A stretch of DNA of 64,000 bases from Promethearchaeota archaeon (lineage in GTDB: Archaea > Asgardarchaeota > Lokiarchaeia > Sigyniarchaeales > SOKP01), in the NCBI GenBank assembly GCA_019057795.1, contig JAHLWS010000082.1:1-64000 (forward strand). The letters are read 5' to 3'. The position numbers and the translations under genes were made by a program. The notes under the pieces were generated by a model. It made no database searches. It was not told where the DNA came from and saw only the letters and a program-made list of their open reading frames with translations. Below, piece by piece: positions 26,844 through 43,813 of this stretch; positions within the stretch are counted from its first letter, which is position 1; each line of letters opens with the position of its first letter.

Positions 26844-29117
26844 TTATCTGTAAATATCTTCGACAGTTTCTTTAATAGTTTCTTCATAAGCCCTTTTAGC
26901 TTTATTAGCGCCTAATTGAACTTTTTCTATTGCTTTTTCAAAATCAGCTTGAGAAATTTTAACCTTTTTATATGAATCAGGATTTTGGGTATCTATATTA
27001 TCGTCAATAACACCTCTGCGAATGGCCAAAAGTGTGGCTTCCTCGCAGATTGCTTTTATATCCGCTCCTGTATTTCCTTCTAACCTTTCTGCTAGTTTTT
27101 CAATATCAATATTATTATCTATCGGACGATTAGCGAGGTGTATTCTAAATATCTTAATTCGGGAGGTTTTATTTGGCAATGGAACTTCTATATGCCTTCC
27201 GAATCTTCCTGAACGTAGAATGGCAGGATCGAGAATATCGGGTCTATTTGTAGCCGCTATTAAAATGACATCGTTTAATTCTTCTAAACCATCCATTTCT
27301 GTTAAAAATTGTGCTACTACTTGTTCAATAACCCTTGAACCTGAAGATGTTGATCTTCTTGCTGCGATAGCATCAATTTCGTCAAAAAATATAATACAAG
27401 GAGCAGCCGCTCTTGCTTTTCGAAATATTTCTCTTACAGCTTTAGCACTTTCACCAACCCATTTTGATAGAAATTCAGGACCCTTTACAGAAATAAAATT
27501 TATTTCGGTTTCATGGGCAAGCGCTTTCGCCATTAATGTCTTACCCGTCCCAGGAAGACCAAACATTAAAATTCCATTAGGGGGTCTTGATTTCATATGT
27601 TTATAAAACCCCGAGTACTTAAATGGCCATTCAACAATTTCTCTTAATTGCTGCTTTGCGTCTTCTAATCCGCCAATATCTTCCCAAGTTTCAGTTGGTT
27701 GCGTAACAAATACTTCTCTTAATGCAGATGGCTCAATACTATTTAATGCTGTAATAAAATGTGTCATTTTAATTATTAATTTGTTTAAAATTTCTTCCGG
27801 TATAGGTTTATCTAAGTCAATATTAGGTATTATCTCCCTAATCGCAAGCATAGCTGCTTCTTTGCATAAAGCTTTTATATCCGCACCGACAAAACCATGT
27901 GTTTTTTCAGCAATAAGATTTAGATCAATATCCCCATTTAAAGGCATCCCTCGAGTATGGATCAATAAAACTTCATAGCGGCCTTTAGTACCAGGTACTT
28001 TAATTTCAATTTCTCTATCAAAACGCCCTGGTCTTCTTAGTGCTATATCAATAGTATTAACTTTATTCGTTGCACCAATGACTATGACTTCACCTCTCCC
28101 TTCTAAACCATCCATAAGGGATAGAAGTTGAGCCACAACTCTTGATTCTACCTGACCTTTGTTTTCATCCCTTTTATGAGCAATTGAATCTAATTCATCG
28201 AGAAAAATAATAGAGGGGGCGTTATTTTTTGCTTCTTCAAATCTATTTCGAAGATTTTCTTCACTTTGACCAAAAAATTTGCTCATTATTTCAGGTCCAC
28301 TGATATTTATAAAATAGGCATCAGTCTCATAAGCTACTGCTTTTGCTAGTAATGTTTTACCTGTACCTGGAGCCCCATGGAGTAGAACTCCTTTTGGAGG
28401 ATCAATTCCAATTCTTTCAAAAAGTTCAGGATGTCTAATAGGTAGTTCAATTATTTCTCTAATCTTTTGAATCGCATCCTCTAAACCCCCTATATCCTCG
28501 TATGTTATTTTTCCCTGAATTTCTTTTAATCTATGTTCTAAATCACTAATTCCTTCATATGTTATTTCTTTTTTTTTTATTTCGTTAATTTCTTGAGTTG
28601 ATTTTTCGCTAAATAATATTTTTGTATCAAGTTGAATTTTAACCGCTTCAGAATTAGGCATGTAATCAACGACTACAAGGTCAATTCTGCGTGCCATAGC
28701 GTAGAAACTTAAGCTATCTCCTTTTGTTATTGACCTATTTTCTAATTTTCTAGCTAAGGCTTGAGGATCTCGTGGGATTAATGAATTATCTAACCCAGTA
28801 AAGGTTATTGTATTGGCAATATCTACACTGATTTTTTTAATTTCAACAAGGTCATCAATTGAGGCTCCTAAATTTCGTCTTAGGGAGGGATCCATACGAA
28901 TAATCTTTTTTCCTTTATCTTCATTTTTTCCTGTAGACAAAGAAGCAACAGTTTTTTTATTTACTACAGGATGGATGATTTTAATTACATCACCTACCCT
29001 AAGATTTAAATTTGAAACTATCTCTGGGTCTATTCTTACAATACCTCTCCCTGCGTCTTCTTTGAATGCGTCTTTAATCCTTACTTTACTTACAATCCCA
29101 TCAATATTCTCAACCAT
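26844..29117 (-). CDS. cdc48: CDC48/VCP/p97-family AAA+ ATPase
   Basis: N domain ([11 protein letters not shown]), D1 GAPGTGKT...DELD...[10 protein letters not shown]2 GLPGTGKT...DEID...RSGRF, and C-terminal HbYX-type IYR. Confidence 0.96.
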
Positions 29118-29168
29118 TTTATTCCCCTCTAAACTAACTAATAATTCAATAAAAAAAAATTAAAAAAT

Positions 29169-30182
29169 TTACATCTTAGATAACAATTTTTTAGCAACTT
29201 CGAACGCATAGTTATAATCAAATACCTTTGTACCTTTAGTTTTTGTTGCTTCTTTTAATATTTCTCCCTCCGAATTTGCTTTTAAACGACCTAATGCTAG
29301 TGCTCCGATTCCAAAAATTCCTGGATATATTTCTTCATTATCGTGTTTTGGTCTTATTCCTTCAATTCCATAAGGGGGAACTAAATTGATATCTACTACA
29401 ATTTTCTTACCTTCTAACCTTTCCATAAGATCGCTTGATAAAATTTCAACACCAGCAGCAGCTAGAGACCAGATAATAAGCGCATCTTTAGCAACATCAT
29501 ATCTTTGTTCTTTTTCAGGCGCAAAAATCCCTTTAATCTCGGTTGCATCCTCCCCAGCTTCTTCGGTTACTTCTTTAGCAAGATTTTTTATAAATTCTTC
29601 GTTCGATTTATCCCAAGTTTCAACTAAAAATGTATTCAACCCTTCTTTTGCTGCTAATATGGCAGCAATTCTGGCAACTGGACCTGCCCCATAGATTACG
29701 ACTTTTTCTCCTTTTAAATCACTAATTTTATGTATATTTTTAGCATCGTATAAAGTCTTAGCTACAACTGCAGAAGCAGTAGTATGAGAACCCCTTGGAT
29801 CTATTATTACGGGACATTCAAATGGAGGTACTAAGGATTCAATAACTTTCTTAGCGATTTTTTCCCCTTCCTTTACATTAGATCCCCCAATAAAAAATGC
29901 TGTAGGTGCTTTAGGTTTACGTGAAAATATAGCATCCTGGACAAGTTTAGGAACTTGGTCCGCTGTCATTCTACTTATTGGCACAACAATATCAAAACCA
30001 GCGTCGTAAGCCATGTTAATGTCAAACGGAGAAGCGTTATCATCCGTGTCAAAAAAATAACAAATCTTATCTGAGGTATCCTTTTTCTTTATTTTAATTG
30101 GTGTTAATTCTATTATTGATTTTTTACCAAGAATACTTTCAATTTTACTTCCAATTTCATTATTTTGAGTAATTTTTCTCAT
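29169..30182 (-). CDS. mtdB: NAD(P)-dependent methylene-H4MPT dehydrogenase (MtdB/MtdA family)
   Basis: SPFDINMAYDAGF, VQDAIFSR, FIGG, VPPF...DPRGSHTTASAVVA, DINLVPPYGIEG and GIGALALG match the methylotroph MtdB pattern. Confidence 0.85.
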   Translation of the reverse strand: MRKITQNNEIGSKIESILGKKSIIELTPIKIKKKDTSDKICYFFDTDDNASPFDINMAYDAGFDIVVPISRMTADQVPKLVQDAIFSRKPKAPTAFFIGGSNVKEGEKIAKKVIESLVPPFECPVIIDPRGSHTTASAVVAKTLYDAKNIHKISDLKGEKVVIYGAGPVARIAAILAAKEGLNTFLVETWDKSNEEFIKNLAKEVTEEAGEDATEIKGIFAPEKEQRYDVAKDALIIWSLAAAGVEILSSDLMERLEGKKIVVDINLVPPYGIEGIRPKHDNEEIYPGIFGIGALALGRLKANSEGEILKEATKTKGTKVFDYNYAFEVAKKLLSKM

Positions 30183-30235
30183 CTCACATCGTTAATTAAA
30201 TTATAAAATTCAAAGAAATTATAACTAAAAAAAAA

Positions 30236-30967
30236 TTATTTAGATATTTCAACTTCTACCTCTTCTTCATACTCTTTTTCGATTTCTGCGGTTTTAATAG
30301 TTCTTTTGATTTTAATCTGTTCTGTATCGATGCCTAAATCGTTTGCTAACTTATCTAAACCTTCAAAGTGCCTTAAATCGCAAATAAATAACCCCTTTAA
30401 TTTTTTCCCTTTAATCTCCTTTGCAAGGTTTAAAGTATTCATCATCATCCAAGCTTCTCTAACTTTATATCGAATTTCATCTTCTTGTGAGTCATAATCA
30501 TTTTTGAGATATTCTTTCCATAAAACTAATTGTTGGAAGAGTTCATCCTCGGAAGGAACACCACCGTTTTCTGTAATTATCTCTTTTATTCGCTCTTCAA
30601 GTGTTTGTAGCATATTTCTGTGTTCATCCAATGCCGCAGAAAGATAAAATTCCGCATTTTCAGAGATATCAGCATGTTTAAATCGAATTCCTTTCTTTTT
30701 GAATAAGGTTTTTAGAGGATCGTTAGGGTTTAACGGGTCATCCCAAAAATTTGGTTTTTCTTCTAAAGCAAAATCAGGTGAATATTTGTCTATTAAACCA
30801 TCAATGAGCTGAAGATATTCTTTGCTAATAAGATGTAAAGACCATAGCAAATCTTCCTTTTTTTCTTTAGGAACTTCGAACCACCAATCTATTGGAAACT
30901 CACTTTCTACCATGATAAGCTTTAGATGCTTATCTTTTAATGGCTTTAATTCTAATACTTCTGGCAT
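30236..30967 (-). CDS. Hypothetical protein (paralog of 30992..31609)
   Basis: 243 aa with an AGGAG SD. Shares the EVLELKP start and overall layout with the upstream gene. Confidence 0.8.
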   Translation of the reverse strand: MPEVLELKPLKDKHLKLIMVESEFPIDWWFEVPKEKKEDLLWSLHLISKEYLQLIDGLIDKYSPDFALEEKPNFWDDPLNPNDPLKTLFKKKGIRFKHADISENAEFYLSAALDEHRNMLQTLEERIKEIITENGGVPSEDELFQQLVLWKEYLKNDYDSQEDEIRYKVREAWMMMNTLNLAKEIKGKKLKGLFICDLRHFEGLDKLANDLGIDTEQIKIKRTIKTAEIEKEYEEEVEVEISK

Positions 30968-30991
30968 ATTTTTTTAACTCCTTTTTTTTAA

Positions 30992-31609
30992 TTAAAATAT
31001 AATATTTTGAATAGTATGTTTTTTAGTATAGGAAATTACTTTTACTCCCAAATCTCTTAAATCTGCTACGACTTGAGGGCAAATATCCTCGCAAATATCC
31101 TCCTGAACAAAATGTACAAAAGAAACAACTTCATTTTCAAAATGACGTGCAAAATCTAACATTTTTTTTACGATCCACTGTGGTCTTAGCTTTAAGCTTA
31201 AAAAAATCTCTTTTTCTTGAATTTCTTCGCTTAACATGTCAATCCAATTTTTTAGACTTTGTCCTTTGAAAGATTCTTTATCACTCATATTGTCGTATTC
31301 TTCAAATAATTCATTTTGAAGTTCTTGTTTTTCAACAATCTCTTCGTAAAGATATCCCATTGCATAATCTGGAATATCTACTTGAATATATTGTATTCCA
31401 AGTTTATCTAATGTTTGTGCAAAAGGTGTTTTCTTAAATTCCTTCATATCTACTTGAAAATCTACGGTAACAAAATTAACATCTTTCTTTTTAAGAAAAT
31501 CGGTTAATTTTGATGTATCTTTATTTTGAAAATACCTGCCATTTTCTTTTGAGGACATATACGCTATTATTTTTTTATTTTTTACTGGTTTCAATTCCAA
31601 AACTTCCAT
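30992..31609 (-). CDS. Hypothetical protein (paralog of 30236..30967)
   Basis: GAGGTG SD, then ATG 31609 (MEVLELKP). Confidence 0.8.
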   Translation of the reverse strand: MEVLELKPVKNKKIIAYMSSKENGRYFQNKDTSKLTDFLKKKDVNFVTVDFQVDMKEFKKTPFAQTLDKLGIQYIQVDIPDYAMGYLYEEIVEKQELQNELFEEYDNMSDKESFKGQSLKNWIDMLSEEIQEKEIFLSLKLRPQWIVKKMLDFARHFENEVVSFVHFVQEDICEDICPQVVADLRDLGVKVISYTKKHTIQNIIF

Positions 31610-31655
31610 ATAATAATACACCTCTTTTATTTCAACTTTTTAAAAAAGTATTTAC

Positions 31656-31735
31656 CTAATTGAATTGTCGTAAGCTTAAAATATAAAGAATTTGACAAGA
31701 AAATTTTTTAACATATTGATAAGGAATATTATCAA
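31656..31735 (-). promoter_or_regulatory. Promoter/operator copy B with inverted repeat TTGATAA-N6-TTATCAA (31716-31735)
   Basis: Minus-strand TTTATAT box. Lies in the divergent intergenic region and matches 26731..26810. Confidence 0.65.
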
Positions 31736-31931
31736 AATTTTTATCTAAACAATTTTTTTAGTTAATTGAAAATCGTCATTTTTATTGATGGAATCCGTGG
31801 GTCACATGATCATTTTCTAACACATTTATATATTTTTACAACATATATTATCATGAAGAAAAAATAATTTGTCAAAAAAAAGTTTTTAACAAAAAAAATT
31901 CGAAATAAAAACACAATAGAGAAGCTCAAAA

Positions 31932-34478
31932 ATGGATATTTATTCAATTTTAGCCCATCCAATGAGAAGAAAACTCTTATACCTTCTCAAAGAAGAGGGT
32001 TTTATCCCATATACCGAATTAATGAAGAAGTTAGGGATAGAACAAACAGGACAATTAAATTTTCATTTGAAAAAGCTTAATAATTTAGTGAGTAAAAACA
32101 AAAAATCGTATTATTTAACTGATGATGGTAAAAGAGTTTTAAGGATATTAGGATTAAACAAAAGAATTTTATCCGGAGAGGAAATAGAATATTTGAAATC
32201 AAAGGGGAGCGAAATAAACAGAATAGGTGTTATTATCTGTAATTGTAATACAGAAGTTTCAAATGTCCTTAACATTAACTCCTTAGAAAACTATGTAAGT
32301 AAAATAAATAATGTAGTTTCAGTTAAAATCCTTGATAATTTATGTCAAGAAAAAAACCAAGATAAAATTAATAATTGGATTACTGATAACTTCATAAATA
32401 AAATTGTCATCGCTGCTTGTTCTCCTAAAACACATCAACATATATTTGAACGTCTTTTTCAAAATATAATTGATAATGCAAATATTGAGATTGCAAATAT
32501 AAGAGAACAATGTTGTTGGGTACATTATTCAAGTAAAAAGCACATTGATAGTCTTTTAACTCTGAAAAAAGCGCAATTACTTATAGAAGCCTCAGTTAAT
32601 CGAGTAAGTCTTCAAAAACCAATTAAAATAAAAAGAGTTGAAGTTGAAAAAAGTTGCGCTATTGTTGGAGGTGGGATTGCGGGTATGAACACGGCGTTAA
32701 ACTTATCAAGGGCAGGTATCAAGTGTTACCTAATTGAAAAGTCTCCTACATTAGGAGGTAAAGTAGCAAGATGGCAAAAGGTTTCTAAAATGGGAGATTG
32801 CTCTGCTTGTTTCATCTCTGAATTAATTGGGGAAATTGTAAAAGAAAAAAAAATCGAGATCTTGACAAATACGGAAATAATAAGTGTATCGGGAGAAGTT
32901 GGCAATTTTACTATAGGTTTAATTAAAAAACCTCGCTATATTGATGAGACTAAATGCACAGGTTGTAAACAATGTATTGATGTATGTGCTCGAGAGAAAG
33001 TTAATATGTATGAATTTGGATTAACAAATAGAAAAATAATTCACTTTCCTTTTCAATACTGTTATCCTTATGTCCCCGTTATTGAAGATGAAGATATTAA
33101 TAACTGCCTTGAGTGTGGAGTATGTGAACGCGCTTGTGCAAATAAAGCAATAAATTTAAGAGAAAAACCTAAGGAATTAAGAATTAAAGTAGGCGCAAAA
33201 GTTATAGCTATTGGTTCAGATCTTTATTCAAATTTAAAAGAATATAATTATAATCCACGAAATAATGTTATAACTTCAGCAGAATTTGAACGAATCTTAT
33301 CTTCAGATGGCCTAACTGATGGAAAGATCGTAAAATTGTCTGATGGGAAACCAGTAAAAACAATATCAATTATTCAAGAAGTAGGACCTTCAAATTATCT
33401 ATGTGAATATTCGGATATTTTAACCCTAAAGTATATAGATGTTATTAAAGTAAAGAATCTTGATTGTGAAGTTAATGTTTTTTACGATTTAAGTAAACTA
33501 AAAGAAAAAGACGAGATAATACTAAAATCTACTCATCCTAGATTTCTTTACGCTAATAATGTATTAATTGAGACAAGAGAGAATATTAATTATGTAGTTG
33601 CGGATTCTATTGAGTTTCAGAGTGATTTGATTGTTTTAAATCTTAAATTAATTCCAAATGAGGATCTGAAATCTCTAAGAAAGATTATGGACTTCACTTT
33701 AAATGATTATGGTTTTATGAGTGAAGAAACTTTAGCTTCTGGTATTTATGGTGTTGGAACAATATTTGGGCCATTAAATTATCACTCTACTATTGCAACC
33801 ACAAATAACATAGCGTTAAAAGTAATATCACTTCTTTCAAATGATTATTTAATAACAGAATATACTGGAATAGAGATTAATGAAGACAAGTGTGGATTGT
33901 GTAGCCTCTGCGTTAATTCTTGCCCTTACAATGCAATAAGCATAAACTCCGAAAAAATTGCTGTTGATAAGTTTAAATGTAAAGCTTGTGGTATGTGTGT
34001 CAGTGTTTGTCCTACTAATGCCATCGAAATGAATATAAATACATCAGAAAAGATTTTAAAAACGATCGAAATTTTCTCAAAATTCAATAAAAAACCAAAA
34101 ATCATCGCTTTTTGTTGCCAATCGTGCGGTTACGCTGCCGCTGACGATGCAGGATTAAAGAAATTGTTATATCAGCCTAATGTTTTTATAATCTCTGTTC
34201 CTTGTACCGGGCGTGTTGATACTGAATTCATTATTAAATCTTTTGAAATGGGGTTTGATGGAGTTATGATTATCGGCTGTAGAAAGGATTCTTGTAGATA
34301 TATTGATGGGATTGAAAAATTAAAAAAAAGAGTTGGGCTTTTAAAAAAAATTCTAGGACCAAAGTTAAGCAGACGGATAATAGTGATGGGTTTAAACGGA
34401 GTTGAAGGACATATATTTGCTGAAATCTCTACTAAATTCTATAATTTATTAAAGGAGGAGATTAAAAGTGAGGCTTAA
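31932..34478 (+). CDS. wHTH (ArsR-like) - HdrA-like flavoprotein - ferredoxin - MvhD fusion protein
   Basis: Residues 1-80: ILAHPMRRKLL...YTELMKKLG..TGQLNFHLKKL...YYLTDDG. HdrA part: RIGVIICNC, AACSPKTH, NIREQCCWVH, GGGIAG, DCSAC, ITSAEFER. Four CxxCxxCxxxC motifs. MvhD part: AFCCQSCGY, PCTGRVD, GC...C.Y. Confidence 0.9.
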   Translation: MDIYSILAHPMRRKLLYLLKEEGFIPYTELMKKLGIEQTGQLNFHLKKLNNLVSKNKKSYYLTDDGKRVLRILGLNKRILSGEEIEYLKSKGSEINRIGVIICNCNTEVSNVLNINSLENYVSKINNVVSVKILDNLCQEKNQDKINNWITDNFINKIVIAACSPKTHQHIFERLFQNIIDNANIEIANIREQCCWVHYSSKKHIDSLLTLKKAQLLIEASVNRVSLQKPIKIKRVEVEKSCAIVGGGIAGMNTALNLSRAGIKCYLIEKSPTLGGKVARWQKVSKMGDCSACFISELIGEIVKEKKIEILTNTEIISVSGEVGNFTIGLIKKPRYIDETKCTGCKQCIDVCAREKVNMYEFGLTNRKIIHFPFQYCYPYVPVIEDEDINNCLECGVCERACANKAINLREKPKELRIKVGAKVIAIGSDLYSNLKEYNYNPRNNVITSAEFERILSSDGLTDGKIVKLSDGKPVKTISIIQEVGPSNYLCEYSDILTLKYIDVIKVKNLDCEVNVFYDLSKLKEKDEIILKSTHPRFLYANNVLIETRENINYVVADSIEFQSDLIVLNLKLIPNEDLKSLRKIMDFTLNDYGFMSEETLASGIYGVGTIFGPLNYHSTIATTNNIALKVISLLSNDYLITEYTGIEINEDKCGLCSLCVNSCPYNAISINSEKIAVDKFKCKACGMCVSVCPTNAIEMNINTSEKILKTIEIFSKFNKKPKIIAFCCQSCGYAAADDAGLKKLLYQPNVFIISVPCTGRVDTEFIIKSFEMGFDGVMIIGCRKDSCRYIDGIEKLKKRVGLLKKILGPKLSRRIIVMGLNGVEGHIFAEISTKFYNLLKEEIKSEA

Positions 34479-35232
34479 ATTTTTAATTACATCTTTAACA
34501 TCTTGTACTGGATGTATATCCACATTAATATCGTTAGATGTATTTCCACAATTTCTTGAGAGAACGAAAATCGAATATTTTCCATTTATATCTGACAATT
34601 TAGAGATCAAAGAATGCGATGTAGCGCTAGTAGAGGGGTGCGTATCTGAAAAGAATCAAATCGAATATCTTCAAGAAATACGAAAAAATGCAAAAAAACT
34701 ATATGCATTAGGTACATGCTCAGCATTTGGGGGGATTCTTAGCCTCTCAAATAAAAAAGGATCGTATCCCATTTCCAAGTTTGTAGATGTTGATGGTATT
34801 ATACCGGGATGTCCTCCTCCGTCCATACTTTTAGGAAATTGTTTATTGAGGTTAGTTGAGAATAAAAAAATCAAGCTAAGCTTAAAAAATATGTGTTCTA
34901 CTTGTCCTTTAAACAACCAGGCAAAATTAGATTTACCATTAACAATAGAAAAGATTGTTCCAAGGAACAATGAAATTCGCTTTCCGGAAGAAAATTTATC
35001 GTGTTTTTTGAACGATGGGATTTTATGTTTAGGTCCTATTACTCGAGATGGCTGCGACCATCTCTGTATAAATCAAGGATTACCATGTGAAGGATGTTTA
35101 GGTCCGGTTTCAAAGGGGTTTACATCGAATTTAATCAATTTCTTAAGCCTTTTTAACCTTTCTAAAGATTTAAGAAAATATAAAGGGATATATTATAGGT
35201 TCTCAAAATCACCTATGGGAGGGAAGGTTTGA
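34468..35232 (+). CDS. mvhG: Group 3 [NiFe]-hydrogenase small subunit (MvhG-like)
   Basis: SCTGC, LVEG, GTCSAFGG, PGCPP, CSTCP and CFL..GILCLGPITRDGC...C....PCEGCLGP. Confidence 0.85.
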   Translation: MRLKFLITSLTSCTGCISTLISLDVFPQFLERTKIEYFPFISDNLEIKECDVALVEGCVSEKNQIEYLQEIRKNAKKLYALGTCSAFGGILSLSNKKGSYPISKFVDVDGIIPGCPPPSILLGNCLLRLVENKKIKLSLKNMCSTCPLNNQAKLDLPLTIEKIVPRNNEIRFPEENLSCFLNDGILCLGPITRDGCDHLCINQGLPCEGCLGPVSKGFTSNLINFLSLFNLSKDLRKYKGIYYRFSKSPMGGKV

Positions 35233-36533
35233 TGGATAAAGTTGTAGAAGCATGCACAAGGGTTGAAGGTTGTGGAAACTTAAACATTTATTTAAAAAAT
35301 GATGAAATTTATCAAACTGAATTAAACTTTTCAGTATTTAGAGGATTTGAAAATATTTTAGTAGGCAAAAAGTTATTAGATCTTCCAAAAATAGCATCTA
35401 GAATTTGTGGACTGTGCTACGCATCTCAAACAATTGCAAGTTGCAAAGCAATAGAAGATATATACGGAATAGAACCATCACACCAATCAATTTTGCTCAG
35501 AAGGCTTTTATTATCCGGAGAATTAACAAAATCGCACATTATGCATTATTTTTTCCAATCCTTTCCAGATTTATTAAAAATATTTAAAATTAATACTACA
35601 ATTAACGATCCTTATAATTTAATTAATTACAATCCTCATTTAACGACAAATATTTTTAATTTAATAAAAATTGGTTCAGAAATAAATAAATTAATAGGAG
35701 GAAGGGTGCTACATCCAATTACTCCGATTCCTGGAGGATTAATATTCAATCCCACTCGAAAGAGTTTAATTTTTATGGAGAAATATCTAAAAAAGGGAAT
35801 TTACTACATAGAAACTATAATTGAAAATTTTATAGATTTATTTTCTGCTTATGATCCTCCTACAGAATTTAATCTTTCTAATCCTATATATTTCAGCTTG
35901 AAAAACAATACGGGGTTTGATAGATATGAAGGAGACCTCAGAATTGAACAAAATGAAACAACTTACGACGATTTTCAAGCAAAAAATTATTCAAAATATT
36001 TTGATAAAGACCCTAATCTTTATGGGATTATGTTTAAGTCAAATTCGAAAAATGAAATTTTAACAGGACCAATAGCGCGCTATAAGTTAACTCAAAGTTA
36101 TGGGATAGATAAAATATCCGAATATTTAAGCAATTTTGGAAAAAAATGGAAAAGCAATTTATTATTTTTAAACTTTTTACAATTAATCGAAAGTTATTAT
36201 GAAATTCAAAAATGTGTTGAAATATTCAATACTACTTCACTAAAAAGTAGAACAAAACTTAAACAACTGAACTCAATAAAAAAATCAAATGGAATAGGGG
36301 TTATCGAAGCACCAAGAGGCATACTAATGCATCATTATCATTTAAATAAAGCTAAAATCGTTGATCAAGTAAAACTTTTCATTGCAACCGAAATAAATTT
36401 GCCTATTCTTAACAAAATGATCACTGAATATGCTAAAAAGCTATATGAAAAAGAAGATATCGATTCTGTTAAAGAAAAAATTCAAATAATGATAAGAGCA
36501 TTTGATCCTTGCATATCGTGCGCTTCTCATTAA
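35229..36533 (+). CDS. mvhA: Group 3 [NiFe]-hydrogenase large subunit (MvhA-like) with no C-terminal extension
   Basis: TRVEG, RGFE, L1 RICGLC, EAPRG, and L2 RAFDPCISCASH followed directly by TAA. Confidence 0.88.
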   Translation: MMDKVVEACTRVEGCGNLNIYLKNDEIYQTELNFSVFRGFENILVGKKLLDLPKIASRICGLCYASQTIASCKAIEDIYGIEPSHQSILLRRLLLSGELTKSHIMHYFFQSFPDLLKIFKINTTINDPYNLINYNPHLTTNIFNLIKIGSEINKLIGGRVLHPITPIPGGLIFNPTRKSLIFMEKYLKKGIYYIETIIENFIDLFSAYDPPTEFNLSNPIYFSLKNNTGFDRYEGDLRIEQNETTYDDFQAKNYSKYFDKDPNLYGIMFKSNSKNEILTGPIARYKLTQSYGIDKISEYLSNFGKKWKSNLLFLNFLQLIESYYEIQKCVEIFNTTSLKSRTKLKQLNSIKKSNGIGVIEAPRGILMHHYHLNKAKIVDQVKLFIATEINLPILNKMITEYAKKLYEKEDIDSVKEKIQIMIRAFDPCISCASH

Positions 36534-36591
36534 CATTAAAAATCATAATAATTAAATGTAATTAATTTAATGAAGAAGAGGATGATTTAAA

Positions 36592-37632
36592 TTGAAAGAA
36601 AATCTCTTAAATAACGCCAATAAAGAATGTCCATTTAGCGAATTGTGTGAGACTCTTTTGTTTTATTTTGATGAGACTATAGGCCATGTCCCACTTCTTA
36701 TTTGTCCAGAAAATGCGCTAGATGATGATTCGGGAAAAATGCGTCTTATAAGATACCATCCAATTTGGTTTTTAGAACTTAAAGATAAAACTACAATTAA
36801 CCGAATCGATTTAGAATACGGTAATCAAATGTATTTTGCGAAGAAATTTATTATTGAATCTAAGAGGGTTAAAAGAAGAGCAGGGTCTTTTCAAAAATCG
36901 GGTGAAATAGTTGTGTTGATACTTGTGTTACCTACAGATTTAGATATTTTTGGGGGAGAAGTATTAAATTTATTAACGAAAAAATTAGTCGACAAATTTG
37001 AAAATACGCTTTATCTTGTAATCGAGTCAGAAATTGCGAAACTGGAAGTTATTAAAACGGAGAAAATAATCAATAAGATAAAAAAAGGAGAACAAATAAA
37101 AGAAGAAATAAAAGCTATAGTTAACCTTACTTGTGAGGAATATTTTTCATCAGTAATTAAACAAACTGATGCGACCTCTTTCAAATTGCAAAAAGCAATT
37201 TCTTATTTAACATTTAAAGGAATCGATATTGACCACATTGTTATAAATGCTCAAAATGAATCGTTTTCTAAAATTCGATTATTTGATTATGATAGAGTTG
37301 TTCAACAAAAATTAGGAATAAAAGCTCAATTTAAAATAATGAATATAAATATTAGTAACAATTTTCAGGAAATAGAAGTTTTAGTAAAGAATAAGAGTAA
37401 AAAGGAATTCAATGATCTCATTGTCCGAATTACTTACATTAAAGAATTTTTTGAAAAAGAGGTATTAAACGAAAAAGTTGAAAAATGCCTTCCCGAAGAA
37501 GAATTATTGTTTATAACGCCTGTAATTAAAAATACAAACAATTATTTGTTTTCCATTATTGAAGAACATTCTAATAGAACAATGTTTTCTAATAAAATTG
37601 ATTTAGAATTAATTAAAAGTCGTCCCTACTAA
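36592..37632 (+). CDS. Hypothetical protein with putative N-terminal longin/uDENN-like domain
   Basis: LLFYFDETIGHVPLLICP resembles the F-D-x-x-x-G-P beta-hairpin start of longin/uDENN folds. The ORF is solid; the fold call is tentative. Confidence 0.55.
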   Translation: MKENLLNNANKECPFSELCETLLFYFDETIGHVPLLICPENALDDDSGKMRLIRYHPIWFLELKDKTTINRIDLEYGNQMYFAKKFIIESKRVKRRAGSFQKSGEIVVLILVLPTDLDIFGGEVLNLLTKKLVDKFENTLYLVIESEIAKLEVIKTEKIINKIKKGEQIKEEIKAIVNLTCEEYFSSVIKQTDATSFKLQKAISYLTFKGIDIDHIVINAQNESFSKIRLFDYDRVVQQKLGIKAQFKIMNINISNNFQEIEVLVKNKSKKEFNDLIVRITYIKEFFEKEVLNEKVEKCLPEEELLFITPVIKNTNNYLFSIIEEHSNRTMFSNKIDLELIKSRPY

Positions 37633-38566
37633 GGTATTTTTTCAAATTTTGGAAATCTTCGCCGTTTAAGTCGTTCATCACCGCATTAAAAATTCCCAGA
37701 GTTTTCTCTTTTGTAACAACCATCAGTACCGATCCATTGCTAACTTCCTTTACAAAAATATAGTTGTGTTCGCTCTCATATATAACCGTTGATAATTCTA
37801 AAGGAGAAATCGAAGTATTTGAAAGTTCCATGATCTTTGAAAAAATTTGATAAATATTAGAATCAAGGCTTCCGATTTCAAAACGGAGGAATTGAAGAGG
37901 TCTGTGCTCGAATTTACCTAAAGTTGAAGCTATCAATAAACCATCGGGTTGATTGAATAAGAAGTAATCAGAAAGCGTAGTTAACTTCAGCTGATCTAAC
38001 ATATACCGTATTTTTCCGAGTCTTTGTAAAGCTATTGTGTTTTGTTGAATTTTATAATCGAGTATTTCGATCATTCGATGTTGAGCACTTCCTTCTTTTA
38101 CGGATACGGGTGTAAAAGAAATATTACTTTTTAAATCATCTGTAAGATCTTTAATTAACAGTTCATAAATGTCATCTTCCTTTGATTCTTGAAGATCAGT
38201 TTTATTTAATAAGACATATACTTTTCCTACTTCAGGACTAAACTCAAAAAGGTATTTCAAGAATTTACCAAAAGTTTCTTTTAGTTTTGGTTCTTTTGCT
38301 GCCGAATCAACCATGAAAATTGCAGCTAATACTTCAGAAAATACAAGCTCTCGCTTTTTTTCCGAGAAATATCTTTCCATATAAAGTTCTTGGCCTCCTA
38401 AATCCCAGATGGAAAGTTCCATTATTCCCCTAAATATAAAATTTTCCCTTGAGACTCCTTTTGTAGGTTTCAGATTAAGCACTTTCATGAAATTATAACC
38501 TAAACAAGTAGTCCTCATTAATGACGTTTTACCCGCACCACCAGGGCCAAATAGAAGTACTTTTAT
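37613..38566 (-). CDS. Rag/Gtr-like small GTPase fused to a C-terminal roadblock-like domain
   Basis: Extending upstream of ATG 38518 recovers IKVLLFGPGGAGKTS (P-loop). Also PT (G2), WDLGGQ..YM..YF (G3), NKTD (G4) and C-terminal DGLLIAS...VLMVVT. ATA start proposed at 38566. Confidence 0.85.
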   Translation of the reverse strand: MKVLLFGPGGAGKTSLMRTTCLGYNFMKVLNLKPTKGVSRENFIFRGIMELSIWDLGGQELYMERYFSEKKRELVFSEVLAAIFMVDSAAKEPKLKETFGKFLKYLFEFSPEVGKVYVLLNKTDLQESKEDDIYELLIKDLTDDLKSNISFTPVSVKEGSAQHRMIEILDYKIQQNTIALQRLGKIRYMLDQLKLTTLSDYFLFNQPDGLLIASTLGKFEHRPLQFLRFEIGSLDSNIYQIFSKIMELSNTSISPLELSTVIYESEHNYIFVKEVSNGSVLMVVTKEKTLGIFNAVMNDLNGEDFQNLKKYLSRDDF

Positions 38567-38796
38567 TTTATTTCACCGTTAAACTTTTATTGTTTAAAAT
38601 AAAGCGATAATTGATTTAATATTAAATATACTTTAATCGTCTAATATATTTTTTATAAATTAACATTTATTTAATTTTTTCTAATTATTATACGATTTAT
38701 TAGATTTTAATTGCATGGATGATTCAATTAAATATAATTTTTAATTAACATAATTAATTTGTTAGATATATTTATAAAAAATATTGGAGAAATGAA

Positions 38797-39324
38797 ATGG
38801 ATTTACTGAAAGAAATTAGGAATGTACCTGATTGGCCAAAACCAGGTATTCAATTTAAAGATATAACTACTTTAGCGAAAAATCCAGCAGCTTTCAAAGA
38901 ATCATGCGACCTTATAATTAAAAAATATAAGAAAAAAAATATTGATGAAGTTGCTGCAATTGAGGCTAGAGGTTATGTTTGGGGTGGAGTTATAGCTTAT
39001 CAACTAGGAACAGGGTTTATATTAATTCGAAAACCAGGTAAATTACCTGCAGACACAATTATTGAAGAATACGAATTAGAATATGGAACAGACAAGATTG
39101 AGATGCATGTTGATGCTATAAAGAAAGGTGAAAGAGTATTATTATTTGACGACTTATTAGCCACTGGAGGGACTGCAAAAGCAGCCTGTAATCTGATTGA
39201 AAAGGCAGGTGGGGTTGTTGCTGGAATAGCATTTGTGATAGAGCTTACAGGTAGTTTACATGGTCGTGATAAATTAGAAGGATATGACGTCCTTAGCCTT
39301 CTCGAAATACCGGTTGAAGAGTAA
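38797..39324 (+). CDS. apt: Adenine phosphoribosyltransferase
   Basis: PDWPKPGIQFKDIT, IEARG, RKPGKLP, LEYG and DDLLATGGT. Confidence 0.96.
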   Translation: MDLLKEIRNVPDWPKPGIQFKDITTLAKNPAAFKESCDLIIKKYKKKNIDEVAAIEARGYVWGGVIAYQLGTGFILIRKPGKLPADTIIEEYELEYGTDKIEMHVDAIKKGERVLLFDDLLATGGTAKAACNLIEKAGGVVAGIAFVIELTGSLHGRDKLEGYDVLSLLEIPVEE

Positions 39325-39449
39325 CCGAAATTTTTTATTTACATGTCTACCCATTTTTTTCCCTTAATTCTCTCTTTTTTTTAGTCTGAAAACTTAAATA
39401 ATTCTCTGTACTTTATACTCACAGTATTAAAATAAACACATTACAAGGT

Positions 39450-40544
39450 GTGGATGTGATTCAAGAACTGAAAAAAACTCCATTTTATAATATTCACGTG
39501 AATTTAGGAGCAAGGATGGTTGACTTTGCTGGTTTTAGTATGCCAGTGCAGTACGAAAGCATTATAAAAGAACACGAAGCGGTACGCAATAAAGCGGGTG
39601 TGTTTGACGTGTCACATATGGGGGAATTCCTGTTAGAAGGGAAAGATGTAATATCACTTCTTCAATATGTTATGATTAACGATTTAAAGCTACTAGAACC
39701 CACAAAAGGACAATATTCATGTATGTGTTACGAAAATGGGACTGTTGTTGACGATCTTGTTTATTACGAGGAAGAACCTGAGCGATTTAGAATGATCGTT
39801 AACGCTAGCAATATCGAAAAAGATTTTCAATGGTTAAACGAGCATATTGGAAGTAAAGATGTTAAAATTACTAATTTATCCTTAAAGCGATGTCGTTTAG
39901 CGTTTCAAGGTCCAAAATCTGACGAATATCTCCAACCGTTAGTGGATGTTGATTTATCTTCGATAAACAGGTTTTATTTTGCTCACACTACGTTAAACGG
40001 GGCTCCAATATTTATAGCTAGAACTGGGTATACAGGTGAGCGAGGGTTTGAAATTTCATTTGATAATAAATATGCTGAGAAAATATGGAATGATTTAATT
40101 AAAACTGGAGCCTCACCAGCAGGTTTAGGAGCGCGAGATTCGTTGAGATTAGAAGCAACATACTCATTATATGGACACGAAATTAGCGATTCAATTACGC
40201 CTATTGAAGCTGGACTTTTTTGGCTCGTCAAACCTAAAGAGGGTATCGATTATATTGGAAAAGAAATTTTATTAAAACAAAAATCCGAAGGAACAGATCG
40301 AATTATTGTTGGGTTGAATCTGCTGGATAGAGGTATTATTAGAGAGCATTATAAACTTTTTATTAAAGGCGAGGAAATTGGATATGTAACATCAGGTGGA
40401 TATTCACCTACCCTCAAAAAAACAATAGGCTTAGGCCTAATTAAAAATCAATATCGTGAGGAAGGAAATAAGCTTGAAATTGAAATTCGCAATAGACTCT
40501 TAAAAGGAGAAATAGTTTCTACACCGTTTTATCGTAATGTTTGA
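39450..40544 (+). CDS. gcvT: Glycine cleavage system T protein (aminomethyltransferase)
   Basis: [34 protein letters not shown] and [12 protein letters not shown]. Confidence 0.96.
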
Positions 40545-40579
40545 GTGAAGTAAATATAATAATTTAAATGTGAAAAATT

Positions 40580-40975
40580 ATGGAATACGAATTTCCAGAT
40601 GATTTAAAATATATGAAGACACATGAATGGGTGCGAATTGAAGGCGATACGGCTACAATAGGTATTACCGATTATGCTCAACATCAATTAGGTGATATAG
40701 TTTATGTTGAATTACCCGAAATAGGAAGAACGCTAGAAAAAAATAGTAGTGCCGGTGAAATTGAATCCGTTAAGGCAGTTGGAGAAATTCTGATGCCATT
40801 ATCCGGAGAAATCGTTGAGATTAACGCTATTATAATAGAAAACCCCGAATCAATTAATTCTTCTCCTTATGGGGATGGTTGGATGATGAAGATAAAGGTT
40901 TCAAATAGTAGCGAAATTAACGAACTTTTATCCGTTGAAGATTATAAAAAAATAGTAGAAGAAGAGAAAAAATAA
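40580..40975 (+). CDS. gcvH: Glycine cleavage system H protein
   Basis: HEWV, GITDYAQHQLGDIVYVELP, lipoyl motif IESVKA and PYGDGW. Confidence 0.96.
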   Translation: MEYEFPDDLKYMKTHEWVRIEGDTATIGITDYAQHQLGDIVYVELPEIGRTLEKNSSAGEIESVKAVGEILMPLSGEIVEINAIIIENPESINSSPYGDGWMMKIKVSNSSEINELLSVEDYKKIVEEEKK

Positions 40976-41012
40976 ACTTTTTTTCCAATTTTTAATTTTA
41001 TTTCTTAATTTC

Positions 41013-42377
41013 TTGAAGTATGAGTTGGTTAATTTGGATTTTGTACCTCATGACGATAAAACAATTACTGAAATGCTTAAAGTTATTGGCGTTAATAATT
41101 TAGAAGAATTATTCCAAGATATTCCTAAAGATTTAATTATTAACAGTTTAAATTTACCTTTAGGCTTATCCGAACCAGATGTTCTGAAAAATTTAAAAGA
41201 ACTTTCTCAAAAGAATAAAGTTTATTCTAATTCCTTTTTGGGAGCAGGTTATTATTTCCATTACATTCCTTCTTTAGTTGATTTTGTAATAAGTCGTACA
41301 GAGTTCTATACTTCATACACTCCCTATCAAGCAGAAGCTAGTCAAGGTTATTTACAAGCGATCTATGAATATCAAAGTGTAATTTCTCGACTCACTCAGA
41401 TGGATGTTGCCAATGCTAGTATGTACGATGGCTCCACTGCGCTTGCGGAAGCGGCTATTATGGCAACTATAATAACAAGGAAAAACCGTTTATTATTATT
41501 GGAAGGCATTCATCCCGAATATTCTGAAGTTGTCAAAACTTATTGTTGGGGACAAGGAATCAATCTTAGAATTATCGCTGAAAATGAATTAATAGACGAA
41601 TTAAACCAAGATATTGCAGCTGTTTTATTTCAGAGTCCAAATTTCTTTGGAGATATTGAAGATGTATCGTCGTTAGCAAAAAAAGTGAAAGAAAAAGCTC
41701 CTAATTGCTTATTGATACAATGTATGACCGATCCCACCTGTTTAGGTGTTCTGAAACCACCAGGAGAAACAGATGTAGATATTTTTGTAGCAGAAGGACA
41801 GTCTTTCGGAATTAGTCCCTCATTTGGTGGACCGGGATTAGGGATTTTTACAGCAAAGCAAAAATATTTGAGGAAAATGCCAGGTAGATTGGTTGGCAAA
41901 ACAAAAGAAATTAACGGCGAACGCGAGGGATTTTTATTAACGTTACAAGCCCGTGAGCAACATATACGAAGAGAAAAAGCGAGTTCAAATATATGCACAA
42001 ACCAAGCATTATGTTCATTATCTGCCTTAATTTATATTATATCTTTAGGAAAAACAGGATTGCGCGAAATCGCAAGCCAAAACTTTCAAAAAGCTAATTA
42101 TGTTAAAAACAAACTAAATGAAATTCCTGGTTATGAAATTTTAAACAAAAAACCAACTTATAACGAATTTATTGTAAAATGTCCAGATGTTGATGCTCTT
42201 ACTCATGAATGCAAGCAATTAAACTTGCTTCCTCCCCTCCGTCTCTCAAAGTATTTTCCAAATTTGAAGAACACAGTTTTAGTGTGTGTAACAGAAATTA
42301 ATTCTCGGGAATCAATTGAAAAGTTTATCAATGCTGCTAAAAACGCTCTATATAACAAAAAGGAGGGAAAAAAATAA
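41013..42377 (+). CDS. gcvPA: Glycine dehydrogenase (decarboxylating) subunit 1
   Basis: FLGAGYY, EFYTSYTPYQAEASQG, NASMYDG and REQHIRREKASSNICTNQAL. The start may be TTG 41034. Confidence 0.95.
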   Translation: MKYELVNLDFVPHDDKTITEMLKVIGVNNLEELFQDIPKDLIINSLNLPLGLSEPDVLKNLKELSQKNKVYSNSFLGAGYYFHYIPSLVDFVISRTEFYTSYTPYQAEASQGYLQAIYEYQSVISRLTQMDVANASMYDGSTALAEAAIMATIITRKNRLLLLEGIHPEYSEVVKTYCWGQGINLRIIAENELIDELNQDIAAVLFQSPNFFGDIEDVSSLAKKVKEKAPNCLLIQCMTDPTCLGVLKPPGETDVDIFVAEGQSFGISPSFGGPGLGIFTAKQKYLRKMPGRLVGKTKEINGEREGFLLTLQAREQHIRREKASSNICTNQALCSLSALIYIISLGKTGLREIASQNFQKANYVKNKLNEIPGYEILNKKPTYNEFIVKCPDVDALTHECKQLNLLPPLRLSKYFPNLKNTVLVCVTEINSRESIEKFINAAKNALYNKKEGKK

Positions 42378-43813
42378 TGGATAATAATGATTCTTTGATT
42401 TTTGAAAAAGGGGTTGACCGCGCCCAAAAGAATTTTATTCCAAAAATGGATGTTAATGGTGAAAAACTTGAGGACATCCTCCCCAAGAATCTCTTAAGAG
42501 ATGTGCTTCCAATTCCAGATGTTCCTGAGGTGGAGATCGTTCGCCATTATGTTAAATTAAGCACATTAAACTACGGTGTAGATTCAGGAATTTATCCTTT
42601 AGGCTCTTGTACCATGAAATATAACCCCAAAATTAACGAGATAGTAGTACGATTGACTGAATTTTCGCAAATACATCCACTTCAGGATGAAAGTGAAGGT
42701 TCACTTGAATTATTATACAATATTTCAATAATGTTAGGTGAAATTACTGGTATGGACGGATTTACCTTACAACCTGCAGCAGGAGCGCATGGAGAATTAG
42801 TTGGTTTATTAATAATAAAAAAATATTTCGAGACTAAAGGGATTATCAAAGATAAAATTATAGTTCCAGATTCGGCACACGGCACTAATCCTGCGTCGGC
42901 GAAAATGGCGGGATTTTCAATTATTGAATTACAATCAAACGAATACGGTGAAGTTCCACTAGACCATCTTGAATTTGCAATGCAACAAGGAGATGTAGCA
43001 GGAATTATGCTTACAAATCCTAACACATTAGGTGTTTTTGACAGACAAATTAAAGATATAACTAGAATCGTCCATAAGCATGGGGGGTTATGTTATTACG
43101 ATGGAGCAAATTTAAATCCCATGTTAGGAATTTGTCGCCCCAGAGATATGGGTTTTGATATAATTCATTTGAACTTACATAAAACTTTTTCAACCCCTCA
43201 CGGTGGTGGAGGACCTGGTTCGGGACCTATTGGTGTTACAAATGAACTCATCCCATTTTTACCAAAACCCTGTATAATTTCGACTAATGATGGTATTGTT
43301 TGCGAACAGAATAATAATAAATCAATTGGCCGAATTAAAGCTTTTTGGGGTAATTTTGAGGTAATATTAAGAGCATATACTTATATTCTATCTTTAGGAG
43401 CAGAGGGGTTAAAACGGGTTGGCCAGATAGCCGTTTTAAACGCTAACTACCTAAAAAGTTTGCTACAAAAGAAATATGAGCTTCCATATAACCGCAGGTG
43501 TCAACACGAATTTGTTTTGTCAGATAAAAATTTACCAAACGATATTACAACTGAAGATGTTGCTAAAAGAATTCTTGATTATGGTTATTACGCTCCAACT
43601 ATTTACTTCCCCTTAATTGTAAATGGAGCAATAATGATTGAACCAACAGAAACAGAATCTAAACATTCCTTAGATAAATTCGTTGAAGCAATGTTAAAGA
43701 TTTACGATGAAGCGTTGGAAAAACCTGGACTCTTGAAAACTGCGCCACATAACACTCCAATTGGACGATTAGACGCAGTGTTCGCTGCAAGAAAACCAAT
43801 CTTGCATGATTAA
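42377..43813 (+). CDS. gcvPB: Glycine dehydrogenase (decarboxylating) subunit 2
   Basis: YPLGSCTMKYNP, QPAAGAHGE, SAHGTNPAS and the PLP motif HLNLHKTFSTPHGGGGPG. Confidence 0.96.
   Translation: MDNNDSLIFEKGVDRAQKNFIPKMDVNGEKLEDILPKNLLRDVLPIPDVPEVEIVRHYVKLSTLNYGVDSGIYPLGSCTMKYNPKINEIVVRLTEFSQIHPLQDESEGSLELLYNISIMLGEITGMDGFTLQPAAGAHGELVGLLIIKKYFETKGIIKDKIIVPDSAHGTNPASAKMAGFSIIELQSNEYGEVPLDHLEFAMQQGDVAGIMLTNPNTLGVFDRQIKDITRIVHKHGGLCYYDGANLNPMLGICRPRDMGFDIIHLNLHKTFSTPHGGGGPGSGPIGVTNELIPFLPKPCIISTNDGIVCEQNNNKSIGRIKAFWGNFEVILRAYTYILSLGAEGLKRVGQIAVLNANYLKSLLQKKYELPYNRRCQHEFVLSDKNLPNDITTEDVAKRILDYGYYAPTIYFPLIVNGAIMIEPTETESKHSLDKFVEAMLKIYDEALEKPGLLKTAPHNTPIGRLDAVFAARKPILHD

Follow-up and report, generated by a model that had tools for sequence, protein, structure and literature searches.

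Comparison with described systems

H2 exchange is central to the presumed lifestyle of Asgard archaea and to syntrophy models of eukaryote origins. We know of no archaeal H2 sensor, and the [NiFe] sensors that have been characterized signal, to our knowledge, only via a separate kinase. In this study, we analysed a three-gene operon in 64,000 nucleotides (nt) of DNA from Promethearchaeota archaeon (GenBank assembly GCA_019057795.1, contig JAHLWS010000082.1, positions 1 to 64,000 of the forward strand); this whole stretch is referred to below as the window. The first gene encodes a winged helix-turn-helix (wHTH) domain fused to an HdrA-like flavoprotein and an MvhD domain, and is followed by mvhG and mvhA, which encode the small and large subunits of a [NiFe] hydrogenase (Table 1). 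Our preferred interpretation, to which we assign a probability of about one in two, is that the products form an H2/redox-responsive transcription factor built on a hydrogenase-HdrA complex, and that this complex is drifting towards a sensor in the lineage of the window. All of the parts come from known families, and a hydrogenase complex that acts as a transcription factor without a kinase would be a new architecture.

The subunit families and their wiring are those of the MvhAGD-HdrABC complex of methanogens (5ODC, 8RVU and 9SW2), in which a group 3c [NiFe] hydrogenase is joined to a heterodisulfide reductase: the large subunit is of the [NiFe] type, the small subunit has three clusters, MvhD has a [2Fe-2S] cluster, and HdrA contains flavin adenine dinucleotide (FAD), an N-terminal cluster, the CxxC pair and two ferredoxin domains. 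The window's complex differs from it in having a predicted DNA-binding domain at its N-terminus, MvhD fused to HdrA and no adjacent hdrBC genes, and in having lost the [4Fe-4S] cluster HA4 of HdrA. Its large subunit has a glutamine in the L1 motif, lacks the C-terminal extension of approximately 25 residues found in MvhA, and falls in a well-supported clade of its own. As in group 3c hydrogenases (Mvh/Vhu), the cysteines of L1 (CxxC) and L2 (DPCxxCxxH) are present, and MvhD and HdrA are encoded directly upstream. The best family match of the fusion protein is HdrA2 of Methanosarcina (NF040770), which has the same HdrA-MvhD fusion order; HdrA2, however, works with HdrB2C2 and has no wHTH, whereas here HA4 has been lost and the partner is a hydrogenase.

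With the group 2b sensors HoxBC/HupUV, the window's hydrogenase shares the L1 glutamine, a large subunit that ends at the L2 histidine, three small-subunit clusters and the presence of a separate catabolic hydrogenase in the genome. Identity to HoxC is only 21%, however, and the nearest relatives of the window's MvhA are group 3 enzymes; the resemblance is convergent. HoxBC/HupUV signals via the HoxJ/HupT kinase and HoxA/HupR, whereas here HdrA would provide a covalent link to the output domain, and there is neither a histidine kinase nor a response regulator: a Pfam search found no kinase domain in the fusion protein, MvhG, MvhA, the downstream protein P0004 or the products of the ten flanking genes (26844-31621 and 37613-43813).

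A DNA-binding domain attached to a redox enzyme has a precedent in the flavoenzyme PutA (proline utilization A), which carries a ribbon-helix-helix domain at its N-terminus and acts as a repressor of its own genes, depending on the redox state of its FAD. The arrangement proposed here is similar: a flavoprotein begins with a DNA-binding domain, and the divergent promoter region that holds its operators also serves its own gene. The folds and chemistry are unrelated, and the input here would be H2 or ferredoxin via a multi-subunit hydrogenase. ArsR/SmtB repressors (CadC, SmtB and NolR) share with the N-terminal domain its fold, helix order, family-level signal and a palindromic target of approximately 18 base pairs (bp). 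Unlike these stand-alone proteins of approximately 100 amino acids (aa), it has no cysteines or metal site, and sensing would fall to the 750-aa redox protein attached to it. Full-text searches of the literature turned up neither a report of HdrA or a hydrogenase complex carrying a DNA-binding domain nor any mention of the domain family DUF7347, to which the N-terminus belongs. A survey of archaeal fusion proteins includes HdrA-HdrA-MvhD fusions in Asgard archaea; the wHTH fusion is absent from it.

Organization and distribution of the operon

A preliminary description of this DNA had read the first gene as an ArsR-like wHTH fused in frame, with no stop, to HdrA, ferredoxin domains and MvhD, had placed it in a tight operon of overlapping genes, and had noted that MvhA lacks a C-terminal extension and that the window contains no hdrB/C, hyp or maturation-protease gene. 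These observations were upheld. Domain profiles cover a single 848-aa open reading frame (ORF). The fusion gene overlaps mvhG by 11 nt, with GGAGGAG positioned 8 nt 5' of the mvhG GTG start, and mvhG and mvhA overlap at their stop and start codons (TGATG), with GGGAGGGAAGG just 5' of the overlap; the three genes are translationally coupled. MvhA ends with DPCISCASH followed directly by a stop (36504-36533). No HdrB or HdrC homologues were found in the 64-kb window by tblastn, and HypD and the genome's single HycI-type protease are encoded on other contigs (C62 and C74).

The search of Asgard genomes that had been proposed for the combined wHTH, HdrA and MvhD architecture shows that it is not unique to this assembly. 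A scan of species-representative genomes found 80 loci carrying the fusion, the closest of which is from 'Promethearchaeota archaeon Loki_b31' (at least 95%), and mvhG and mvhA lie 3' of the fusion gene in every locus whose contig continues. Across the phylum, the fusion was matched in 131 of 400 sampled genomes belonging to several classes; family f2 had it in none of 14 genomes, three of which are single-contig assemblies. The frame over the first 330 residues is unbroken in 17 of 24 sampled genus-mates (64-96% identity) and also in two other families of the same order. When proteins are clustered at 90% identity, more than 120 clusters contain the fusion, nearly all of 840-855 aa: all have DUF7347 (PF24038), and nearly all have FlpD. 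The NCBI names of these proteins, which derive from Promethearchaeota and Lokiarchaeota metagenome-assembled genomes, are only 'hydrogenase iron-sulfur subunit' or 'FAD-dependent oxidoreductase'. Over independent assemblies from many studies the frame remains uninterrupted at 43-96% identity, and we take the fusion to be real, ancient and under selection.

The N-terminal winged helix

Residues 2-72 of the fusion protein match Pfam DUF7347 (E 2e-12; 47.6 bits against a cut-off of 27.6). Matches to the ArsR/SmtB profile NF033788 (E 9e-8; 31.8 bits against a cut-off of 55), HTH_20 and HTH_5 are all below cut-off. An AlphaFold2 (AF2) model of the domain, made with 52 sequences, has a predicted local distance difference test score (pLDDT) of 92-95 over residues 11-70 and the order helix, helix, recognition helix, beta hairpin wing, final helix. 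The best Foldseek matches of this model are CadC, a NolR-DNA complex, SmtB, ArsR, Rv0081, YodB and MarR-type regulators, with a probability of 1.0 and a root-mean-square deviation of 2-3 Å over approximately 83 residues; the E-values are only approximately 1e-3 because of a disordered tail in the model. As modelled, the N-terminal domain has an ArsR-type DNA-binding fold.

The recognition-helix residues T39, G40, Q41, L42, N43, F44 and H45 are invariant in 59 diverse sequences, and mean column conservation is 0.86 for the wHTH versus 0.77-0.82 for the catalytic domains. The linker to HdrA is also conserved (0.79), with G82 invariant and E83, Y87 and S93 nearly so. No cysteine is present in the wHTH sequence; sensing of metals or thiols by this domain itself is therefore unlikely. 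A homodimer prediction with two copies of residues 1-92 scored 0.25 against a mark of 0.42 and was counted for neither side. Proteins of approximately 300-340 aa in Asgard families f13 and f18 (G052, G059-G079, G129 and G131) have a related N-terminal winged helix (residues 5-90) and no HdrA, indicating that the same DNA-binding domain is used in other contexts.

Operator-like palindromes

An 18-bp palindrome, TGAYAA-N6-TTRTCA, was tested on 65 dereplicated upstream regions of 260 nt: it is found exactly in 23 of these (0.03 in shuffled sequences), and with at most one mismatch in 33 (0.72 in shuffled sequences). The window has an exact copy, O1, and a copy with one mismatch, O2, the latter directly after a TATA-like box (Table 1). 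This order, a TATA box and then the palindrome, is common to many of the orthologous upstream regions, and a site just 3' of the TATA box is the classic position for an archaeal repressor. The exact site is 203-236 nt 5' of the start in 21 of the 80 loci; in the 14 of these that also carry the divergent gene u209 (see below), it is at 205-230 nt.

Approximately 20 of the 80 loci, a sub-clade among L048-L127, have no motif near the start codon, with exact sites instead located 1.2-1.5 kb upstream (about -1300 to -1500). In L076, the only long-spacing locus examined, the palindromes are 5' of an inserted frhB-like gene, and thus they move with the promoter. The product of the inserted gene (L076:4742-5899), 385 aa long, is FrhB/FdhB-like and begins with a 2x[4Fe-4S] domain, which suggests a cofactor-reducing output (F420 or NAD(P)) there. 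Exact sites are also present in the distant lineages L130 (at -70) and L131 (at -126 and -70), whose MvhA proteins are 31-36% identical to that of the window, while the upstream region of L128 has no exact site.

The 4.95-Mb genome contains six exact sites, which is the chance expectation from base composition, and 121 sites with at most one mismatch. Only two pairs of sites lie within 300 nt of each other anywhere in the genome: O1/O2 and C87:24441/24477. That the fused wHTH binds DNA sequence-specifically has strong but indirect comparative support. The other exact palindromes (on C4, C5, C6 and C78, and at C87:88368) were rejected as targets, being mostly inside ORFs and no more numerous than expected by chance. 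The CATGAT...ATCATG arms flanking the TATA box were also considered as an operator and dropped; TGAYAA-N6-TTRTCA is the enriched motif.

The divergent u209 module and a predicted regulon

The genes u209, u243 and u337 form a conserved module, divergent from and upstream of the fusion operon in 47 of the 80 loci and also near it in the distant loci L128-L130. In L076, L091, L094 and L099, other genes separate the module from the operon, yet an exact palindrome is still found just 5' of u209. The genome has exactly two copies of the module by tblastn, one in the window and one at C87:24599-26865 (L134:5600-7896). The C87 pair of sites is 120-160 nt 5' of a gene for a 209-aa protein that is 31% identical to u209 (E 6e-32), and this gene is followed by one for a 556-aa Mpt_N/AlaDh protein. 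The C-terminal half of the latter matches the NADP-dependent methylene-tetrahydromethanopterin (H4MPT) dehydrogenase MtdA (1lu9, E 6e-36; 6tlk; approximately 1e-36). A single protein of 556-560 aa combines u243 and the dehydrogenase in L130 and in the C87 copy; in the window the two are separate.

As paired sites stand 5' of both copies, the predicted regulon consists of the fusion operon itself and the u209/MtdA-like modules, which represent a step of the Wood-Ljungdahl pathway. The evidence for this small regulon is, as for DNA binding, strong but indirect. For the protein u209 itself, an AF2 model (pLDDT 86) gave only generic helical-hairpin or weak matches to signal recognition particle (SRP) GTPase and ChaN-like proteins with Foldseek against the PDB and VIA-align, and an atlas search returned only Asgard hypothetical proteins.

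Cofactor sites of HdrA, MvhD and MvhG

The NCBIfam HdrA2 profile begins, at its own position 1, at residue 97 of the fusion protein (E 2e-166; 555 bits against a family cut-off of 1100), and HdrA of 8rvu is matched with an E-value of 5e-105. Two Fer4 domains occupy residues 647-700, and the C-terminal domain matches Pfam FlpD (E 2e-32) and MvhD chains in the PDB (E approximately 1e-21). Compared with 8rvu, the HdrA part has the N-terminal cluster cysteines, the DCSxC pair, GGGIAG and both ferredoxin domains, all of them invariant in the 59 sequences. MvhG retains the cysteine ligands of all three of its clusters in an alignment to 5odc_E.

HA4 is the exception. In solved HdrA structures, its ligands are provided by the motif CxGSR(D/N)...CxxxCC, of which the window protein keeps one cysteine, and that one is not conserved. 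The loss of the ligands is clade-wide, whereas paralogues on contigs C80 and C46 of the same genome keep them. The high-potential electron passes from FAD to HdrBC via HA4 (PMC12350162, PMC13580544, PMC9012536), and a protein lacking this cluster should therefore be unable to act as a heterodisulfide reductase in the known way. An hdrB gene or hdrBC pair is adjacent to the operon in none of the 80 loci; five loci have a weak HdrC-like ferredoxin match downstream only.

The large subunit MvhA and its phylogeny

In the window's MvhA, the L1 motif reads RICGLCYASQ (35400-35429) and the L0 motif RVEGC. The four Ni-Fe cysteines are kept here and conserved in 67-68 orthologues. Glutamine (Q67) occupies the position of the L1 histidine in all 67 orthologues compared, and the protein ends at the L2 histidine in 67 of 68, whereas approximately 25 further residues follow this histidine in the solved MvhA (5odc_F) and in the large subunit of A. 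mobile (7t2r_D). The L0 histidine is replaced in the window and is another residue in 11 of 67 orthologues. By direct alignment, C. necator HoxC (RVCGICSVSQ) likewise ends at the L2 histidine, and its glutamine aligns with Q67; the energy-conserving HoxG has histidine in L1 and a 15-residue tail. A glutamine in L1 is characteristic of the regulatory, H2-sensing hydrogenases (PMC5665086). The best matches of the window's MvhA are NCBIfam ShyA (group 3b) and 7t2r in the PDB.

Relatives of MvhA fall off steeply after approximately ten clusters among 1.8 billion representatives. In a FastTree phylogeny of 132 full-length representatives, the window's MvhA is in a distinct clade with Shimodaira-Hasegawa (SH)-like support of 99-100, apart from both long-tailed Mvh-like and short-tailed sequences, and the L1 glutamine arises once inside this clade. 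From the tree and the distribution of the other features we infer the order of changes: the wHTH and operator came first, then the loss of HA4, and then the change from histidine to glutamine together with the loss of the tail. The clade retains intermediates (wHTH with intact HA4 and a His-type MvhA; HA4 lost; glutamine gained), so that a path from enzyme to possible sensor could be reconstructed. With HA4 lost, no hdrBC nearby, glutamine in L1 and the extension gone, the enzyme of the window's lineage appears to have moved away from heterodisulfide-reductase chemistry.

Other hydrogenase and Hdr genes of the genome

The only other [NiFe] hydrogenase of the genome (C60:2367-6685; L021) is a canonical Vhu-type [NiFeSe] enzyme, with hdrC and hdrB directly downstream. 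Its large subunit is split after residue 434 and has HH in the L1 motif and a C-terminal extension; the small subunit is 438 aa. The in-frame stop at the first cysteine position of its L2 motif (DC*LSCAAH) is probably selenocysteine. This hydrogenase could take on the catabolic role.

At least eight HdrA paralogues are encoded in the genome (on contigs C5, C22, C42, C87 and others). Several have 1-4 in-frame TGA codons, and some are double-HdrA fusions of 900-1170 aa. Selenocysteine-containing HdrA and VhuD have been reported for Asgard archaea, and the in-frame TGA codons are consistent with such proteins. A further cluster, L022 (C80:37040-44706), lacks a [NiFe] large subunit and consists of hdrC, hdrB, hdrA, mvhD and genes for a 413-aa small-subunit-like protein with only the Oxidored_q6 domain and an 821-aa FrhB-GltD-like fusion.

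Proposed mechanism and alternative explanations

We propose a three-protein complex in which MvhA and MvhG would be wired through the [2Fe-2S] cluster of the fused MvhD into the HdrA-type FAD/iron-sulfur protein. HdrA proteins are dimeric, and so two winged helices would be available for the 18-bp palindrome. The dimeric complex would bind TGAYAA-N6-TTRTCA, with O2 in the repressor position just 3' of the TATA box and O1 in the shared divergent region. How far the FAD and clusters are reduced would depend on electrons arriving from H2 or, in reverse flow, from ferredoxin; their redox state would alter the affinity for DNA through the conserved linker; and the regulated genes would be the operon itself and the u209/MtdA-like modules. 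Four points are inferences from sequence: that the complex binds DNA, that redox state switches it, in which direction it regulates, and whether its turnover is low. A narrower form of this proposal can be offered only tentatively, at less than even odds: a one-component H2 sensor, in which the [NiFe] site is coupled via an intramolecular Fe-S/flavin wire to the attached DNA-binding domain, and H2 sets the transcription of the operon and the MtdA-like module. If true, this would be the first archaeal H2-sensing transcription factor, sensing without a kinase or second messenger. The candidate is also widespread (about a third of the genomes sampled, as given above), with a defined, predicted 18-bp target and a small predicted regulon.

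The preliminary description had likewise proposed a group 3c-derived module repurposed as a sensor, and this idea survives in part: the wHTH fold, the palindrome at the operon's own promoter, the L1 glutamine, the missing tail and the loss of HA4 agree with it, but wHTH and operator are also present in His-type lineages. Several other points weigh against a transcription factor drifting towards a sensor. For the bacterial sensor, it is stated that the glutamine 'seems not to be involved in H2 sensing' (PMC5665086). The missing extension is only weakly diagnostic, because 16 His-type group 3 representatives in the tree (15 outside the clade and one inside) also lack it. P0127, P0129 and P0141, which branch off earlier, retain the L1 histidine yet adjoin DUF7347-HdrA-FlpD fusions, and in L131 the wHTH-bearing HdrA has all four HA4 cysteines, with two exact palindromes upstream; the DNA-binding domain therefore predates the sensor-like changes and is independent of them. 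The four Ni-Fe cysteines, the three MvhG clusters, the MvhD cluster, the FAD site, the CxxC pair, the N-terminal cluster and both ferredoxin domains are all invariant, which is the pattern expected of a working electron-transfer enzyme. To these may be added the long promoter spacing of approximately 20 of the 80 loci and the gene for an FrhB-like, cofactor-reducing subunit in the operon of L076.

Much of this is accommodated by a PutA-like enzyme-repressor: primarily a working hydrogenase (H2:ferredoxin, or H2:F420/NAD(P) with the FrhB-like subunit) that is not a heterodisulfide reductase, and whose wHTH, in response to the redox state of the flavin, only adjusts expression of the operon itself and of metabolic partner genes. 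We regard this as a serious rival, well within the range of the possible although short of an even chance, because basal lineages keep the histidine and HA4 yet carry the same domain and operator; exact sites were found in two of the three lineages with a normal L1 histidine that were checked, one of them with intact HA4. The invariance of every electron-transfer cofactor site except HA4 fits a working enzyme, as does the frhB-like gene that separates the fusion gene from the promoter sites in L076 (the same spacing being seen in approximately 20 of the 80 loci), and the tight, conserved linkage to the MtdA-like dehydrogenase module suggests metabolic coupling. In the window's clade, however, the L1 glutamine, the absent extension, the variable L0 histidine and the loss of HA4 suggest that catalysis has been relaxed or altered; the genome has a separate canonical Vhu/Hdr-type hydrogenase, and the window's operon has no second, high-potential acceptor module. 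The enzyme-repressor and the sensor-like transcription factor share every step shown here and differ only in the catalytic flux carried. Even the former would be without precedent among HdrA/hydrogenase complexes in having gene control built in.

In many systems winged helices mediate contacts between proteins, and the wHTH might be a docking or dimerization module that does not bind DNA, with the palindromes bound by a separately encoded regulator. The stand-alone proteins of approximately 300 aa that carry a related domain in other Asgard families would fit such a role. We consider it improbable: conservation is highest over the recognition helix and wing, as is typical of the DNA readers of the ArsR family, the palindrome stays with the operon's promoter over deep divergence and after gene insertions, and the only paired sites in the genome are at this operon and at the paralogue of its neighbour. 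That the fusion is an assembly chimera or two mis-called genes has next to no probability and is refuted by the comparative data. Nothing speaks positively for it, although the source is an 87-contig genome with an estimated contamination of 7.5%; the same uninterrupted frame recurs in the independent assemblies, orthologues have Shine-Dalgarno-like motifs 5' of the wHTH start, and there is no methionine at the domain junction, where residues 90-100 are KGSEINRIGVI.

Additional features of the locus

The coordinates of the operon, its domains, its promoter region and the neighbouring genes are listed in Table 1.

Table 1. Positions of the fusion operon, its domains, operator-like sites and neighbouring genes in the window
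Feature	Position	Strand	Remarks
wHTH-HdrA-MvhD fusion gene	31932-34478	+	848 aa; single ORF
ArsR-like wHTH (predicted)	31932..32171	+	Residues 1-80 of the fusion protein; profile matches, AF2, Foldseek
Conserved linker, wHTH to HdrA	32172..32219	+	Residues 81-96; alignment
HdrA-like flavoprotein	32220..34076	+	N-terminal cluster, FAD, inserted and C-terminal ferredoxin domains
Lost [4Fe-4S] cluster HA4 site	33375..33422	+	Thioredoxin-reductase domain; 3 of 4 Cys ligands absent
MvhD ([2Fe-2S]) domain, C-terminal	34101..34454	+	FlpD, residues 724-841
mvhG, [NiFe]-hydrogenase small subunit	34468-35232	+	254 aa; ORF list and family matches
mvhA, [NiFe] large subunit	35229-36533	+	434 aa; ATG at 35232 is the probable start
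P0004	36592-37632	+	Conserved 346-aa protein, no family match; 3' of mvhA
Palindrome O1	31717..31734	.	Exact TGAYAA-N6-TTRTCA; divergent intergenic region; operator-like
TATA-like box TTTATATA	31825..31832	+	Putative operon promoter, inferred from sequence
Palindrome O2	31836..31853	.	One mismatch; starts 4 nt 3' of the TATA-like box; operator-like
Divergent conserved cluster u209-u243-u337	29169..31621	-	Predicted co-regulated target
u209	30992-31621	-	Divergent neighbour of the operon
u243	30236-30967	-	Part of split module
u337, MtdA-like methylene-H4MPT dehydrogenase	29169-30182	-	Pfam Mpt_N

P0004 is found 3' of mvhA in 29 of the 80 loci, at 31-95% identity. The 58-nt gap between the two genes (36534-36591) has no T-run, and P0004 is probably co-transcribed with the operon, of which it may be a fourth member. 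It has no Pfam match, and an atlas search returned only Asgard hypothetical proteins.

In five orthologous loci (L063, L077, L098, L105 and L119), the codon aligned with Met1 of the fusion protein is ATA or ACG, or there is no ATG, GTG or TTG before essential motifs. The mvhA genes of L033 and L036 show the same irregularity, which points to non-canonical start codons in several of the orthologous operons.

The operon and the divergent module are flanked by a gene for a Cdc48-type AAA ATPase (26844-29117, minus strand), by a gene for a small GTPase of the Gtr1/RagA family (37613-38518, minus strand), RagA being a eukaryotic GTPase family, and by a complete glycine cleavage system (T, H, P1 and P2; 39450-43813, plus strand).

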